This document shows, piece after piece, positions 2,502 to 9,496 of a DNA stretch of 9,496 nucleotides. This stretch comes from an uncultured archaeon (lineage in GTDB: Archaea; Asgardarchaeota; Lokiarchaeia; Sigyniarchaeales; Promethearchaeaceae), in NCBI GenBank assembly GCA_964426185.1, contig CAYRPF010000098.1, forward strand, positions 1 through 9,496, written 5' to 3'. The notes beneath the pieces were generated by a model, which was given only the letters and a program-made list of their open reading frames with translations, made no database searches and was not told the DNA's origin. Position 1 is the first letter of the stretch, and each line of letters begins with the position of its first letter. Both the position numbers and the translations under genes were made by a program.

Positions 2502-3917
2502 TTATTTCGCACTTTTCTTAATTATTTGAATAACTTCTTCCAAATTTAATTCCCTTTCTTGCTTTTCCGTAATGAAATTCTTCAAGGTGAACTTTTGAGT
2601 TTCTAATTCTCGTGGGCCGAGAAAAATCATGAATGGAATTTCCAGCCTGTTAACAAATTTACTGGCCGCTCGAAAAGATCTGCTCATTAAATCTACCTCG
2701 GTAGAAATTCCGTTTTCTCTAAGTTTTTGGGCAATTTGAATCCCGAATGTCTGAGTTTCCAATTTAGTTCCTATGAATACCTGCGAACGCGGCTTGATTG
2801 AGGGTAATTTATTCTGTTTTTCTAATGCTAACAAAATCCGGTCAAACCCGAAGGAAAAACCCAATGCGGGAGTATCTTCCCCTCCAAATACCCTTATCAT
2901 TTCATTATAACGTCCTCCACCGCAGATTTGTTTCTGTTTTCCCAGAATGGGTACATCGATCTCGAAAACCAAGTTGGTATAGTAGTCCAAACCCCGGGCT
3001 ATACCACAATCTACAACAAAATTCTCGATTCCGGCCGCTTGCAGAAAGGGGGTGATGTGTGAAATTTTCGAATCTTCGATAGCTTTCAGAGTATTAGGGT
3101 AATCGGAAAATGCATTATTCAGCTGGTTAATTACTTTATCTGCCGGTCCTACCATATCCAATAGCAATTCTAATCTTTGAGATAATTCTGCAGAAATATT
3201 TTCCTCCGCTATCGAACCCCGATAATCCTCCAAAATTGTATCCCTGTTTTGTTCTTCTTCCAAAGCTCCTATTTCCAATTTACGGAGTAAACTGGTAATT
3301 CTATCAATAATTCCAAAGATATTCTTTTGGGTAGAATGTGAAACTTCACGTTCATTTAAGAAAGTGCGTAATACGGTCAAATCATTGATTCGAAGGATGT
3401 AATCTTCAATTTTAAATGTCCGCATGATGTCCATAGCCACTAACAGCATTTCAGCATCGGCTCCCACTTTGTCGGACCCGAAAATTTCAATTCCTGCTTG
3501 AGTAAATTGACGGAAGCGACCAGGTGCTGGTTCATCGTAGCGGAAACACGGACCTATATAATAGTATTTCTGTGGTTTTGGGCGATACATCAACTCACTG
3601 GTAATGAAAAAGCGCACTAATGAGGCTGTAAATTCTGGTCGTAGTGCGTAAAGGGGGGGATTCTCTTCAGCACGGTGTTTAGGGGGATCATAAAAGGTGA
3701 AAATATCATTAATTATCTTTTCTCCAGATCTTTTTTTATAAATATCAAAGAATTCATACATAGGCAGTTCGATCTGCTGATAGCCGTATTTTTCAAATAA
3801 TTCGACTAATTTTGATTCTACCCAGCGGCGCAATGCCATTTCTTCGGGGAGATAATCCACCGTACCGGATGGTCGTTGTAGATTAATTTTATCTTTAGAA
3901 CTGTTGTTGTTTTCCAT
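2502..3917 (-). CDS. hisS: Histidine--tRNA ligase (class IIa)
   Basis: N-terminal PSGTVDYLP, motif 1 (YGYQQIELP), ALRPEFT, motif 2 (FRYDEPAPGRFRQFTQAGIE), histidine-binding loop RGLDYYT, motif 3 (GGGRY...GFSFGFDR) and a C-terminal anticodon-binding domain. Confidence 0.97.
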   Translation of the reverse strand: MENNNSSKDKINLQRPSGTVDYLPEEMALRRWVESKLVELFEKYGYQQIELPMYEFFDIYKKRSGEKIINDIFTFYDPPKHRAEENPPLYALRPEFTASLVRFFITSELMYRPKPQKYYYIGPCFRYDEPAPGRFRQFTQAGIEIFGSDKVGADAEMLLVAMDIMRTFKIEDYILRINDLTVLRTFLNEREVSHSTQKNIFGIIDRITSLLRKLEIGALEEEQNRDTILEDYRGSIAEENISAELSQRLELLLDMVGPADKVINQLNNAFSDYPNTLKAIEDSKISHITPFLQAAGIENFVVDCGIARGLDYYTNLVFEIDVPILGKQKQICGGGRYNEMIRVFGGEDTPALGFSFGFDRILLALEKQNKLPSIKPRSQVFIGTKLETQTFGIQIAQKLRENGISTEVDLMSRSFRAASKFVNRLEIPFMIFLGPRELETQKFTLKNFITEKQERELNLEEVIQIIKKSAK

Positions 3918-4049: not shown

Positions 4050-5321
4050 ATGAAATTAATTGAGAGAATCCATGCTTTTGATATTGTGCGCGGCTTTGCA
4101 GTAATTTTCATGATCATTCTCCACACTGGCTTACATGAGTGGGCTGGAGCTCAAGAACTTGAGAGTGATGTGGGAGGTACTGACCCAGTTATGGGTTTGC
4201 TGATCTTTTTTTTGACCCTCGCTGGAGTTTATTCAACCATTTTAGGTGCAGTCAATAGCTTTATGTTTTATCGACGCATTGAAACAGGTAAAAATACACC
4301 TTCCCAGCTAACTAACTATGGAATTCTAATGGGAATCTGTTTAATTGTGCTAAATTTTATTTTCCGCTTGGGGTTTAGCGGCGATTCAGGGTGGGTCTAC
4401 TTTTTGGTAAAAACCGGGCAATCCACCACTTTCCAGCCATTTTGGCTAGTCAGTAGTTCTGCTTTAACTATTTTGGGCTTAAATTCTATTTTAATACCGT
4501 TTCTATTGCAAATTATTCATACTCACCTGTCTCATGGTCTTAAAAATCGCCAAAGCTATGTGATTCTCTTCTTTTTTGGATGTTTTGTACTTTTATTAAC
4601 CTTACCCCTTCGTTGGTGGGGCGCTCCGTTGGTGGATAATTTAATTTCATCAAAACAATATTTCTTAGCTTGGTTATTAGGCTGTTTTGTTTATGATAAT
4701 TTTCCTTTATTTCCATTCATGGCTTATGCCGCCTTTGGCTCTATTCTTGGAATTTCGCTAGCTCGAAAAGAACGAGCTTCTCATATATTAGAATATACAT
4801 GGTTTCAAACCTTATTCTGGTCTGGAATAGGCATTATCGGTTTGATTCCCTTAGGTGGGATTCATCCTGGTTTAATTTATGCTACAACGCGCTTAGCAAT
4901 TTTAGAAGATTACTTCCGACATATTGCCCAATTGGGTATTATTTTCCTTTTTTTCAGTGTAGCGCTTTCTATTATTGATTTTGTCTCGAGCCCTCGCAAG
5001 GAGAGAAGAGTTAAAGGATTTCGTTTTATTTCTCGCTATGGAATGATTTCACTTACTATTTATATGTTTGAAGCTTTCTTTTCTGGTTTAATCAACGGAT
5101 TACTGAACTTAATTTCTAGCTTCCAAGGTTGGAACGCCACTCTCGGATGGGTTATTGTCGAAGGAATTATCTTAACGCTGATTTGGGGGGTGGTTGCATA
5201 CTTCTGGGAACGCGTTGGTTATAAATATTCGGTTGAATGGTTTTTAATTTGGATCGCAGGAAAAATTTCGGGTAAAAAGAGTGAAAAATATCATATGGAA
5301 CGGGTAGAAATGTCGCCATAA
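4050..5321 (+). CDS. Polytopic membrane protein, DUF1624 / heparan-alpha-glucosaminide N-acetyltransferase (HGSNAT)-like acyltransferase
   Basis: N-terminal RIxxxDxxRGxAxxxMxxxH motif (RIHAFDIVRGFAVIFMIILH), FPLFPF, GxxSLTIY and C-terminal SVEW; about 10 hydrophobic segments; GGAG at 4035-4038 upstream of the ATG. Confidence 0.8.
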   Translation: MKLIERIHAFDIVRGFAVIFMIILHTGLHEWAGAQELESDVGGTDPVMGLLIFFLTLAGVYSTILGAVNSFMFYRRIETGKNTPSQLTNYGILMGICLIVLNFIFRLGFSGDSGWVYFLVKTGQSTTFQPFWLVSSSALTILGLNSILIPFLLQIIHTHLSHGLKNRQSYVILFFFGCFVLLLTLPLRWWGAPLVDNLISSKQYFLAWLLGCFVYDNFPLFPFMAYAAFGSILGISLARKERASHILEYTWFQTLFWSGIGIIGLIPLGGIHPGLIYATTRLAILEDYFRHIAQLGIIFLFFSVALSIIDFVSSPRKERRVKGFRFISRYGMISLTIYMFEAFFSGLINGLLNLISSFQGWNATLGWVIVEGIILTLIWGVVAYFWERVGYKYSVEWFLIWIAGKISGKKSEKYHMERVEMSP

Positions 5322-5357: not shown

Positions 5358-5457
5358 TAGCCCGGCGCGGAATTGAACCACGGTCACAGGGGATCTGTAA
5401 AGAAACGAGAAGTTTAACTTTCCACAACCCTGCAGTCTACGACTAACATACCGGGCT
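5358..5457 (-). tRNA. tRNA-His(GUG) with a 29-nt intron at 37/38; non-canonical acceptor (A1:U72, A73, no encoded G-1, no encoded CCA)
   Basis: The reverse complement folds as AGCCCGG TA TGTT AGTCGTA GACT G CAGGG TT GTG G^[intron]^C CCCTG TGAC CGTGG TTCAATT CCGCG CCGGGCT A. This gives a perfect 7-bp acceptor stem, 5-bp anticodon and T stems and a canonical T loop. The anticodon GTG is at 5425-5423. Confidence 0.92.
5393..5421 (-). other. Archaeal bulge-helix-bulge tRNA intron (29 nt)
   Basis: Intron AAAGTTAAACTTCTCGTTTCTTTACAGAT. Exon U32-U35 (UUGU) pairs with intron ACAG as the 4-bp central helix, flanked by the 3-nt bulges G36-G37^A and A-U^C38. Confidence 0.88.
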
Positions 5458-5488
5458 AGAGATAATATTAGTATGTAGAAAAAAGAAG

Positions 5489-5509: not shown

Positions 5510-5582
5510 TTTAGCGGCATCCCGGCTAATATTATACGTGCTTGTTCTTCACGTTGAACCAATATAGCATCATTGGAAATAC

Positions 5583-5591
5583 TATTTAAAT
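5583..5591 (+). promoter_or_regulatory. Candidate TATA box for the large surface-protein gene
   Basis: TATTTAAAT about 33-41 nt upstream of the ATG at 5624. Confidence 0.35.
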
Positions 5592-5623
5592 TTTACAAAA
5601 CAAATAAAAAGATCACAAACGCT

Positions 5624-8600
5624 ATGCTAGTTATGCAAAAGTGTAGTATTCCATATGAACGAATATTTCCCATGTTCAGCGTAATTTTTCTTTTCATCAT
5701 ACTTAGCAATACCACAAATACCCAAAACTTAAATTTCATGGAAGAATGGGGTGATTTAACTCAATTTCATCAACCAGAAATCCAACAAAGCTGGAGCTTA
5801 AGTCCCATTCAAATCGACGATGTGGCTACCGGAGCTGGCGCGCATAATTGGAGTTGGGCGGTGTCGCAGGACTGGTGTCGCGGGGCTGGAACACTCATGG
5901 ATCCTTATATTATTGAAAATGTATCCATAGATGCTGCCAACGGGGCTTATGGAATTTCCATCAGTAATTCGATTAAGCACTTCATTATCCGTAACTGTTC
6001 AATTTCAAATGCTGGTAGTAGCACCTGGTATGCTGGTATATATATATACAACGTTTCTAATGGGATAATCACCGAAAATTCTCTTGTAGATAACGAAAAA
6101 GGTATTATTTTGAGGTACTTTTGTGAAAACAACACCTTATCTTGGAATAATATTACCGGAAAAACCCTATCCGGCTCGGATTATGGAATTTATATATACT
6201 ATTATGGTCAATACAACTCCATTTATGAGAATCGCATCGATTATGTCGGTTACGGCGTGTATATTTCAGGAACCAGCACCTATAATAATATTTCCTTTAA
6301 TTGGTTCGACACCATCTCATATTACCCTATTTATATTGCTTCAGCGAGCCATTATACCGTAATTAACCAAAACCAAATTCAAACAGGGGATCATCATGGT
6401 ATTTATATAGATAACGCTCAGTATTGCAACCTCACCTTCAATCAGATCTCCTCTATGCAAGAAAACGGGATATACCTCGCAAATGGGGCGGATTATACTA
6501 ACCTCACTGGAAATACTCTTGCCACAATTAATAACTTAGGAATTCGGATTGATAATTCCATGAACTGTTTTCTGACAGATAACACTATGACCAAGTCAGG
6601 AATTGGTTCGGGTATTGGAATTCGGGTCACCAGTAATATTATAACGGATTATTTTCACCAAATTTCCCCCAGTAACACCCTCGATGGCAAACCTATCTAC
6701 TATTATCGGGATCAAATTGACTTAGATGCTCTAAATTTTACAAACGCGGCTCAGATATACTTAATTAATTGCTCCTTTTCCAAGATCGCCAATTTTTCCT
6801 TTTCAAATACTGCCTATGGTTTACTGATGGCAAACTGCTCCTACATTACCGTTAATAATAACTCTTTTACCTCCCATTTCTTTGATGGTTTGTTTCTGTA
6901 CGATGTCAAGAATTCAAATCTTACCGATAACCAAATTTTCTCAAATCACCGCAATGGGTTAAACATTATATATTATTCCAACGAAATTTTTGCTGTAAAT
7001 AATACTATCACTTATAACGATGAAAATGGGGTGTATATCTCTTCATATTGTGATGGTATAACCCTCTACAATAATAGTATCAGTAGAAACACTCTGGATG
7101 GTCTTTACATCAATGATAATTGCTTACGTGTCAATGCCTCATACAATAATATTAGATACAATGAGCAAGATGGGTTAGATCTGGGTTCCTACTCGGATTA
7201 TTTCATATGTAGTTATAATCAAATTCATCACAATTTATACAACGGATTATATATACGCTCTTACACGGATTATGCTGATATCTTACATAATAATATATCC
7301 GATAATTCCAGATATGGGCTTTATATTAACAATCGGGTGCAGTATTCCAATTTCACTCATAATACTTTATTTCGCAACGGTCTATCGGGAAATTACTATG
7401 GGATGTATATGATCAGCGATAGCAATTTTAACCGCATTACCAACAATATTTTTAAGTATAATCAGAAATATGGGCTTTATTTATCTTCCTGCGAATCCAC
7501 CATCATTAAAGATAATCAATTTAACAGCACGGGTTTTGGTATCTATGGAAACTATGATTTGGAATTCGAGCATTATGTAAACACGAATAACTCTTTTGAT
7601 GGAGGCTGGATATATTATTATCTAAATATGAAAAACCTCCGCACTACTGATTTTGAAGCTGCAAAGCAGATATATTTAATTAGCTGTGATGGGGCTTCAA
7701 TTTTCGATATTTCAATCATTAATCAACAATACGGCTTATTTCTGTGGAATTCTTCCCATATTATTGTTAACACTGCCAATTTAACCTTCAGTCATGAAAA
7801 ATCCATCTATATGCGACGTTCTTCCAACAACAGCATCATTCTCGCCGATTGTAGGTGGTATGGTAATAATTATGCCTTACATATGGATCAAGATTGTTCT
7901 GATAATTATTTCAGTCAGTGTAATTTTTCTGAAACTCAAACCGCATATGGATATGGGACCTTTATGACTACGAATTGCGAACGGAACACTTTTTATAACA
8001 ACACTTTTATCAAGAACGGGGATAGAAACATTTACTTGACTTCTACCTGTAATTTGAATAATTTCACCCTAAATATCATAAAAAATGCCCGCCGTTATGA
8101 GGGAATTTACATTGGTGGTAATTCTAACTATAATCTATTCCAAGATAACATCATTCAAGATAATCCCCGGAGTGGGATATTCATTACTGGTAGTTCATTC
8201 AACGAAATATTGGATAATAATATCACTAACAACGGCCAATCTGGATATCCTGGATTATATATCTATAACAATGCCCTCAACACAACTATCAGCGGGAATA
8301 ATGTAATTGATAACTACGGGCACGGAATTGTTATACATACAGGATGTCACAATGCCAGAATTGTTAATAATAATTGTTCTTTGAACGGGGGTTCATCTAG
8401 TTACGGATACGGATTTTGGATCAATAATAATTGTGACAATTTTACCCTTCGAGATAATACTGCTCTAAATAATCGAAAATCGGGTATATATATTTCCGCA
8501 AACTGCCAAAATGGCTTAATCATTAGAAATAATGCTTCATACAACCAAAAAAATGGAATGTTTATGCAAGATAATTGTAACTATTTGGAAATTTTGGATA

Positions 8601-9496
8601 ACATTTTTAATTTTAACTACCAACACGGTTTATCAATGCTGGATTACTGCGATAACATCTTGATCGAAAATAACCGAATGGTAAATAACTCTGATCACGG
8701 TATGTATTTCGAAACATTTTGCGATGCGAATGTTGTAATCAATAACACCATATCGAATAACACCGCGGTGGGAATCGGCTTTTACTCCCTAACTAACGCC
8801 AATCTCATTTTTTTCAATAATTTCACGAATAATGGGTTTCATGCCATCGATAACGGATTAGTTAATAACTGGGATAATTCTTCGCATGGAAATTATTGGG
8901 ATAATTACACTGGAAGAGATTTAGATGATGATTTAATTGGAGATATCGAGTGGGTTATCGTAGGTAGTGCTAATGCTATTGATCATTTTCCGCTGTGGGA
9001 TGATGAATTAGATTTACAGCCATTGCCTGATTTGTCTTCTCCTTTTGATATTGAATACTTTTTTGGAGATATCGGAAATAATGTTACTTGGATTGCAAAT
9101 ACCACTTTCCCAGATAGTTATATTATCACCCGAAACGGAACGATAATTATTACAGGGGCGTGGTTTAATTTTGTTCCAATTACTATCAATGTTGATGCTC
9201 TCTCGGTTGGAATTTACGTTTACAACTGCACCGTTAATACTACCAGAGGTGATTGGATCAGCGATGAAGTGTTAGTTTCAGTAAAAAGAACCCATCCGCT
9301 GATTTCTTCTCCTGAAGATCAAGAAATTCTGGTCAGCGATGATTCACACGATATAATTTGGATAGGGGATGCTCCGTTTCCTGATGTAGTCATTATCCGT
9401 CAAGATGGGGTCGAAATTTATCGAGGTTTTTGGATTTCTAATTCTCCAATTATAGTGAACTTAACTGGGCTTCTTCCCGGTAATTACATCTTTGAA
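5624..9496 (+). CDS. Large secreted/cell-surface protein: right-handed parallel beta-helix (NosD/CASH-like) repeats followed by Ig-like repeats; partial, more than 1291 aa
   Basis: Manual translation of frame +2 has no stop from the TGA at 5555-5557 to the window end. It shows a hydrophobic N-terminal segment (PMFSVIFLFIILS), an N-cap (WCRGAGTLMDPYIIEN), dozens of GIY(I/L)...N..I..N rungs, a NosD-type C-cap (GNYWDNYTGRDLDDDLIGD...DHFPL, about 8888-8995) and then 90-aa beta-sandwich repeats. The start may be ATG 5624 or ATG 5633. Confidence 0.93.
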   Translation, partial: MLVMQKCSIPYERIFPMFSVIFLFIILSNTTNTQNLNFMEEWGDLTQFHQPEIQQSWSLSPIQIDDVATGAGAHNWSWAVSQDWCRGAGTLMDPYIIENVSIDAANGAYGISISNSIKHFIIRNCSISNAGSSTWYAGIYIYNVSNGIITENSLVDNEKGIILRYFCENNTLSWNNITGKTLSGSDYGIYIYYYGQYNSIYENRIDYVGYGVYISGTSTYNNISFNWFDTISYYPIYIASASHYTVINQNQIQTGDHHGIYIDNAQYCNLTFNQISSMQENGIYLANGADYTNLTGNTLATINNLGIRIDNSMNCFLTDNTMTKSGIGSGIGIRVTSNIITDYFHQISPSNTLDGKPIYYYRDQIDLDALNFTNAAQIYLINCSFSKIANFSFSNTAYGLLMANCSYITVNNNSFTSHFFDGLFLYDVKNSNLTDNQIFSNHRNGLNIIYYSNEIFAVNNTITYNDENGVYISSYCDGITLYNNSISRNTLDGLYINDNCLRVNASYNNIRYNEQDGLDLGSYSDYFICSYNQIHHNLYNGLYIRSYTDYADILHNNISDNSRYGLYINNRVQYSNFTHNTLFRNGLSGNYYGMYMISDSNFNRITNNIFKYNQKYGLYLSSCESTIIKDNQFNSTGFGIYGNYDLEFEHYVNTNNSFDGGWIYYYLNMKNLRTTDFEAAKQIYLISCDGASIFDISIINQQYGLFLWNSSHIIVNTANLTFSHEKSIYMRRSSNNSIILADCRWYGNNYALHMDQDCSDNYFSQCNFSETQTAYGYGTFMTTNCERNTFYNNTFIKNGDRNIYLTSTCNLNNFTLNIIKNARRYEGIYIGGNSNYNLFQDNIIQDNPRSGIFITGSSFNEILDNNITNNGQSGYPGLYIYNNALNTTISGNNVIDNYGHGIVIHTGCHNARIVNNNCSLNGGSSSYGYGFWINNNCDNFTLRDNTALNNRKSGIYISANCQNGLIIRNNASYNQKNGMFMQDNCNYLEILDNIFNFNYQHGLSMLDYCDNILIENNRMVNNSDHGMYFETFCDANVVINNTISNNTAVGIGFYSLTNANLIFFNNFTNNGFHAIDNGLVNNWDNSSHGNYWDNYTGRDLDDDLIGDIEWVIVGSANAIDHFPLWDDELDLQPLPDLSSPFDIEYFFGDIGNNVTWIANTTFPDSYIITRNGTIIITGAWFNFVPITINVDALSVGIYVYNCTVNTTRGDWISDEVLVSVKRTHPLISSPEDQEILVSDDSHDIIWIGDAPFPDVVIIRQDGVEIYRGFWISNSPIIVNLTGLLPGNYIFE
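9023..9496 (+). repeat. Tandem ~90-aa Ig-like domain repeats (1 complete, 1 partial)
   Basis: SSPFD..VTW..FPDSYIITRNG..GAW..PITINVDALSVGIY aligns with SSPED..IIW..FPDVVIIRQDG..GFW..PIIVNLTGLLPGNY. The SSP motifs start at 9035 and 9305, a 270-nt period. Confidence 0.8.

Follow-up and report, generated by a model that had tools for sequence, protein, structure and literature searches.

The window, i.e. the whole stretch of 9,496 nt analysed here, lies on contig C98 of a Lokiarchaeia genome (G000, hereafter the source genome; 3.26 Mb, 92% complete). In what follows, f-, G- and L-numbers designate Asgard families, genomes and loci, respectively. The window carries a tRNA-His gene and the hisS gene encoding the histidyl-tRNA synthetase (HisRS), which follows 1.44 kb downstream in the same orientation, with an ORF of the opposite strand intervening (Table 1). 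This ORF probably does not belong to the tRNA-His/HisRS system. The tRNA-His and hisS genes are found within 10 kb of each other in 9 genomes. Downstream of hisS, positions 1-2495 contain a HAD hydrolase, an ORF without assigned family and a calcineurin-like phosphoesterase, in the same order as at the L290 locus. Positions 5573-9496 (plus strand) contain a large beta-helix (NosD-like) repeat protein, open at the window end and probably secreted or surface-bound.

Table 1 Features of the tRNA-His/hisS locus, in window coordinates
Feature	Position	Strand	Remarks
tRNA-His(GUG) gene	5358..5457	minus	100-nt precursor, A1 at 5457, A73 at 5358; CCA not encoded
Acceptor 5' strand (A1, G2, C3 ...)	5451..5457	minus	T at 5458 (position -1), without G-1
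Acceptor 3' strand 66-72 (ending in U72) and discriminator A73	5358..5365	minus	
D arm, His-clade type	5434..5448	minus	G11:C24, U12:A23, 7-nt loop, C18
Anticodon GUG	5423..5425	minus	
29-nt intron at 37/38 with BHB motif	5393..5421	minus	pairing read from the sequence
hisS, only histidyl-tRNA synthetase found	2502..3917	minus	471 aa, archaeal-type, TIGR00442 354 bits vs cut-off 287
HisRS residues 77-90, Gly-Gly loop of the G-1 pocket replaced, 7 residues longer	3648..3689	minus	pocket according to PMC4357726
HisRS motif-2 loop, residues 126-136	3510..3542	minus	Ala131 for the C73-reading Gln, Pro132 for Lys; Arg136 kept (PMC4357726, PMC10100707)
423-aa hydrophobic ORF, no known family	4050..5321	plus	between the tRNA gene and hisS

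The acceptor of the tRNA-His reads AGCCCGG/CCGGGCT followed by A73, with A1:U72 as the first pair, and the variable loop has 4 nt (UGAC). The cloverleaf and the BHB intron at 37/38 follow the archaeal pattern of intron-containing tRNAs: the central helix is UUGU/ACAG, the bulges are GGA and AUC, 37/38 is the canonical site, and the spliced anticodon loop is UU-GUG-GC. The initial annotation, a tRNA-His(GUG) with A1:U72, A73, a BHB intron and a UGAC loop, was confirmed in the sequence on all these points. The variable loop is nevertheless not a meaningful trait, since GAC at 45-48 is shared by G318 and G319, whose His genes have a canonical acceptor.

The gene was called as His(GUG) by ARAGORN with introns allowed and scored 43 bits (E 5e-8) with Rfam RF00005. 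It was called neither by ARAGORN without introns nor by Rfam at the gathering level, because of the intron. Alternative splice registers (e.g. Leu CAG) were rejected, as 37/38 alone gives a BHB. No second tRNA-His was found in the source genome with ARAGORN, RF00005 and a structural scan, genes with a D-loop intron being covered in this search by the loose ARAGORN calls and by the scan in its intronless-anticodon branch, and the window gene is the sole CAY reader found in the genome. Position 18 in the D loop (window 5441, minus strand) is C in place of the near-invariant G18, as in the orthologues of G006 and G013 and likewise in the tRNA-Ser(GGA) of the source genome (C1:90502-90585). A tRNA-Sec gene is present in the same genome at C3:27670-27760.

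Position -1, discriminator A73 and the HisRS pocket

In canonical archaeal tRNA-His, G-1 pairs with C73 and is either encoded or added opposite C73 by Thg1 (PMC3245924). The pocket for G-1 is formed in the T. thermophilus HisRS by a Gly-Gly loop, replaced in Caulobacter (PMC4357726), and a Gln of HisRS motif 2 reads C73 (PMC10100707). Canonical tRNA-His genes are found in the sister family f3 and in many further families of Asgard archaea, and two tRNA-His with C73 but no encoded G belong to genomes that carry Thg1. The window gene agrees with the canonical archaeal tRNA-His (PMC3245924) in its GUG anticodon, reading CAY alone, its G11:C24-type D stem, its 4-nt variable loop and its BHB intron, whereas it encodes no G-1 and presents A73 for C73, G2:C71 for C2:G71 and A1:U72. 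Thg1 domains (PF04446, PF14413) were found neither in the source genome, at its completeness of 92%, nor in 13 further genomes of the family, three of them single-contig, in a search whose positive control worked.

The best outside matches of the HisRS are Methanobacterium HisRS. In the HisRS tree, the main f1 lineage, f4 and G318 form a clade with a support of 100/100. Every tRNA-His found for this clade has A73, and G-1 is encoded in 0/14 of those with a linked HisRS sequence. The pocket loop carries an insertion of 6-14 residues in 11/11 HisRS of the clade with a known A73 tRNA compared to 0/20 with C73, counts that are not independent as the lineages are related. The motif-2 Gln that reads C73 is lost throughout the clade except in G318. 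Loss of the Gly-Gly loop or of this Gln is by itself no proof of G-1 independence, because Arg136, which binds the 5'-phosphate, is retained in the source genome and the same losses occur in some C73 lineages (f3, f26, f31).

Other HisRS types, too, are accompanied by the A73 state without G-1, namely in three f1 genomes and in f10 (Heimdallarchaeaceae), f17, f19, f28 and f30, and Thg1 was not found alongside it in these three genomes or five families. At L137-L139 (G003, G004 and G009, f1), a HisRS type that groups with f26 and f22 accompanies a tRNA-His with A73, no G-1 and a normal register; in f26, this HisRS type is paired with a G-1:C73 tRNA-His. At L225 and L160 (G192, f27), the tRNA-His has U73 and no G-1, and the adjoining HisRS is highly divergent with a pocket-loop insertion of its own, likely an independent rewiring. 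Two further loci, L035 (G019:C54) and L050 (G016:C82), contain dense arrays of 10-11 tRNA genes with atypical acceptors within 3 kb, which probably stem from mobile elements or viruses.

Alternatively, the mature tRNA may still obtain a nucleotide at -1, either because RNase P leaves a U-1:A73 pair or through G-1 addition opposite A73, as known from eukaryotes, by an enzyme that escaped recognition. The T at -1, the phosphate-binding Arg kept in HisRS and the use of other -1 bases by the A. pernix HisRS (PMC9976931) are in its favour. The possible pairing of this T with A73 had been pointed out before; the base is indeed present, but a conserved U-1:A73 pair was ruled out, since position -1 varies among 18 related genes (T in 10, A in 5, G in 2, C in 1) and T is common there in Gln genes as well (12/37). 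Against a tRNA-His without G-1, two relatives (G012, L287) have a G at -1 that faces A73. Considering that position -1 varies, that the 14 family genomes yielded no Thg1 domain, that archaeal Thg1 requires C73 (PMC3245924) and that the pocket loop is rebuilt, a retained or added nucleotide at -1 appears improbable.

By analogy with known systems, the mature tRNA-His would lack G-1 and we infer that HisRS reads mainly the GUG anticodon. In Caulobacter, HisRS charges its tRNA on the basis of the anticodon without G-1 (PMC3064791). The window pair has in common with that of C. crescentus (PMC3064791, PMC4357726) the absence of an encoded G-1, A73, U72 and an altered Gly-Gly pocket and motif-2 loop, and the anticodon is likewise expected to be its main determinant. 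It differs in the archaeal host, the archaeal-type HisRS, G2:C71 and a pocket rebuilt by insertion and not by Asp-Asp; moreover, Caulobacter conserves a G1-U72 wobble, whereas the 1:72 pair is here a Watson-Crick A:U or G:C that varies between sister species. The pair would thus work like that of Caulobacter, but without G1-U72 and with an archaeal-type HisRS. The G-1-independent HisRS of Acanthamoeba castellanii and Trypanosoma brucei (PMC4338351) are similar in having no Thg1-dependent G-1, a Watson-Crick 1:72 pair and, as would be expected here, anticodon-dependent charging; these are eukaryotes with a eukaryotic-type HisRS for which this was shown biochemically, unlike the present case, which is deduced from sequence.

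Reviews regard G-1 as almost universal and list as exceptions a single clade of Alphaproteobacteria, some protists and the mitochondrion of a nematode (PMC9976931); the C73-to-A73 change has been placed in early eukaryotes (PMC3245924). In the openly accessible literature, nothing relevant was found on tRNA-His, G-1 or Thg1 of Asgard archaea, nor any archaeal case without G-1. Several Asgard lineages, with no fewer than three HisRS types among them, have A73 but neither G-1 nor Thg1, which suggests a repeated rewiring of the identity rule, located in the archaea closest to eukaryotes.

Glutamine likeness of the acceptor

The tRNA-His of the window was compared with Asgard tRNAs in a covariance-model alignment of 44 His and 37 Gln genes, using log-odds profiles trained without this lineage and with the anticodon masked. 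Its acceptor scored -33 bits, close to the average of true Gln tRNAs (-34.5), in agreement with the Gln-like acceptor described in the initial annotation. Outside the acceptor, the score was +17 bits, just short of the 18-47 bits of held-out His genes and above the Gln maximum of -2.4.

The resemblance to the archaeal tRNA-Gln of the ND-GluRS/GatDE route (PMC2330236, PMC2978374) consists of A1:U72, G2:C71, C3:G70, A73 and the 4-nt variable loop. The tRNA-His differs from it at G34, in the D stem, in D-loop length and at positions 32, 57 and 59: the Gln-invariant U11:A24, G12:C23, 9-nt D loop and G57 are all absent, and U32, A57 and U59 likewise break Gln-invariant states. The D arm is common to the His genes of G318 and G022, the acceptors of which are His-like, the anticodon and T loops are of the His type, and orthologous tRNA-His make up the five nearest sequences.

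The tRNA trees, built on 52-67 columns and unstable, rejected neither descent. With the acceptor included, the f1 His group fell on the Gln side by a non-significant 6.6 lnL, and the free maximum-likelihood tree nested the eight His genes of the main f1 lineage among Gln genes; with the acceptor removed, His monophyly was best by 6.7 lnL (p-AU of the alternative, 0.26). The earlier proposal that the gene descends from a tRNA-Gln therefore finds agreement in the acceptor and disagreement in the D arm, the two loops and the nearest sequences, and is weakly supported; as to how the body clusters, profile and neighbours favour His, and the trees turn on the acceptor.

The source genome has two ordinary tRNA-Gln genes of its own, CUG on C22 and UUG with a D-loop intron on C8, whose identity to the tRNA-His over acceptor and T arm is 24/32 and 17/32. 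A recent conversion from these genes was ruled out, as their acceptors differ. An initiator-tRNA donor was rejected as well: iMet has in common A1:U72 and the anticodon stem, but another acceptor and D arm, and the traits that it shares with the tRNA-His are also present in Gln tRNAs.

The amino acid carried by the tRNA-His

A1:U72 had been singled out in the initial annotation as the GatDE recognition element, which agrees with the report that GatDE recognises A1-U72 and the D loop (PMC2330236), and insertion of Gln at His codons had been raised as a consequence. The tRNA would then be glutamylated by ND-GluRS and amidated by GatDE, so that some or all CAY codons are read as Gln. A1:U72, A73 and the 4-nt variable loop would suit GatDE, and the source genome has an archaeal GluRS, two GatE-GatD operons and, in a genome search, no GlnRS. 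However, in alignments with homologues from outside the family, the CAY codons of the source genome stand opposite His in 225 cases and opposite Gln in 16; this 3% of Gln is background (2.6% for AAT), and CAR faces Gln 249 times. Since no other tRNA reads CAY, delivery of His has to be done by this one.

In addition, ND-GluRS reads C/U34 and U35 (PMC2978374), and the GluRS of the source genome retains R403, R459, D462, Q530 and R533 but not R426, i.e. 5/6 of the residues named in that study. The YUG anticodon read by ND-GluRS is absent from the tRNA-His, which has G34, and the D arm does not show the Gln/Glu pattern. G34 and the His-type D arm would keep ND-GluRS off, and since GatDE acts only on Glu that is already attached (PMC2330236), it would never meet a Glu-loaded tRNA-His; the Gln-like acceptor would thereby be harmless. 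The second GatE occurs family-wide, including species with G1:C72. Decoding of CAY as Gln is thus not supported by these data and appears very improbable. Gln charging of the tRNA-His is unlikely on this evidence, although some low-level mischarging may occur, and the neighbouring HisRS, already proposed as the enzyme adopting the tRNA, is the likely charging enzyme. The case probes how far a tRNA-His can adopt GatDE/Gln acceptor determinants without being mischarged.

The two GatE-GatD operons of the source genome are divergently oriented (G000:C28:19434-23750, L268 and L269) and their GatE paralogues are 35% identical. AsnRS lies near them and GatB was not found in this genome. Two GatE genes were present in 4/4 other f1 genomes and one in the f3 genome tested.

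History of the acceptor pairs 1:72 and 2:71

The relatives of the source genome include Harpocratesius repetitus, of the same genus, Lokiarchaeum ossiferum and Promethearchaeum syntrophicum. The history of the 1:72 pair speaks most clearly on a descent from tRNA-Gln. A1:U72 occurs at three separate places on the HisRS tree, namely in the source genome, in G006 and in the genus Promethearchaeum. Sister species carry G1:C72 (H. repetitus for the source genome, L. ossiferum for G006), as do the basal f1 species and seven f1 lineages. Parsimony gave 3 changes for the 1:72 pair, a count which presupposes joint inheritance of tRNA and HisRS. Grouping all A1:U72 carriers in one clade was rejected (p-AU 0.0002). 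The acceptor of the H. repetitus orthologue differs from that of the window only at 1:72 and 7:66. Considering that A1:U72 is recurrent and that sister species have G1:C72, the Gln hallmark is therefore a derived state, a late compensatory swap from G1:C72 that took place about three times.

G2:C71 has another history. G2 is present in 15/15 acceptors of the main f1 lineage, and G2:C71 in 37/37 Gln genes and 0/33 other His genes. G2:C71 is the older trait, probably fixed at the base of the main f1 lineage. Regarding traits of a Gln donor, A1:U72 is derived and G2:C71 is ancestral to this lineage, yet not specific to Gln.

These data, together with the sole His gene, A73, the absence of an encoded G-1 and of a detected Thg1, the rebuilt pocket loop and the reading of CAY as His, support the hypothesis of a genuine, vertically inherited tRNA-His that would be charged by the neighbouring HisRS without G-1, its Gln likeness being convergent and limited to the acceptor. 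We assign this reading as a whole a probability of roughly 0.7. After splicing at the BHB, the tRNA would be trimmed to +1 by RNase P, provided with CCA and histidylated without G-1. With G-1:C73 no longer defining identity, the top of the acceptor would be free to change; G2:C71 would have been fixed at the base of the main f1 lineage, and G1:C72 would then have turned into A1:U72 about three times, by two transitions, possibly via G1-U72. The identity without G-1 and with A73, the remodelled HisRS and the absence of Thg1 are likely the context of this drift of the acceptor.

A register slip is a tentative variant of this reading that concerns the origin of G2:C71. An inner pair of an 8-bp acceptor with G-1:C73 would have been deleted and a new discriminator A added, so that the old G-1:C73 became pair 1:72 and the old G1:C72 became 2:71; later swaps of G:C to A:U would have produced the Gln-like start. 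Acceptors of the main f1 lineage fit the His profile shifted by one position (mean -10.1 bits) better than the Gln profile (-12.0) or the His profile in register (-16.2), and the order is the same for positions 2-7 alone (-7.1, -9.0 and -13.2, respectively). Moreover, the sequence from -1 to 6 of canonical Asgard His genes recurs unchanged in two G1-type acceptors (G001 and the P0011 locus). Nevertheless, the gain over the in-register model comes mostly from position 2, a G-G start is frequent among tRNAs, and the slip requires two deletions and one added A. Sisters with the same HisRS type (G318, f4) have no G-1 yet a normal register, so that loss of G-1 may predate the slip. The conversion of G-1:C73 into pair 1:72 by a shift of one position is accordingly put forward as a possibility based on few positions.

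Alternatively, the acceptor or the whole gene may have been recruited from a tRNA-Gln at the base of the main f1 lineage, the His anticodon and D arm being acquired or retained and A1:U72 later replaced by G1:C72 in several species. The window acceptor exactly matches the most frequent Gln acceptor of Asgard archaea, acceptor and T arm together are 27-29/32 identical to Gln genes of other families, and the nesting in the free tree and the distribution of G2:C71 point in the same direction. On the other hand, the tree signal is gone once the acceptor is removed, an ancestral A1 needs about 6 changes instead of 3, recruitment of the whole gene would imply that a D arm like that of the sister His genes was rebuilt, and the Gln acceptors of family f1 itself are unlike that of the window tRNA-His. 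Alloacceptor remolding by anticodon shift could explain a body that resembles another isotype; in the reports on it (PMC3923123, PMC4783518, PMC3113583), the whole body of a remolded tRNA groups with its donor, whereas here only the acceptor does so and it varies among orthologues. Recruitment from tRNA-Gln is consequently doubtful, and its narrower form, in which the Promethearchaeum/Harpocratesius-type acceptor or body came from a tRNA-Gln at the switch to G-1-independent histidylation, is a little more so. If true, a chimeric or remolded tRNA would be encoded in the chromosome of an archaeon that continues to use the GluRS/GatDE route.

Under the preferred reading of a vertically inherited, G-1-independent tRNA-His, the new elements are the recurrent A1:U72 and, possibly, the slip of G-1:C73 into pair 1:72. 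Cultured species of the same HisRS clade provide a natural comparison, P. syntrophicum having A1:U72 and L. ossiferum G1:C72, and the HisRS/tRNA pair of the type found in the source genome could be a candidate orthogonal pair. An unrelated canonical tRNA-His, the G-1:C73 gene of G017 (family f3, L093), also has A1:U72, and the G017 genome carries a short Thg1-like ORF.
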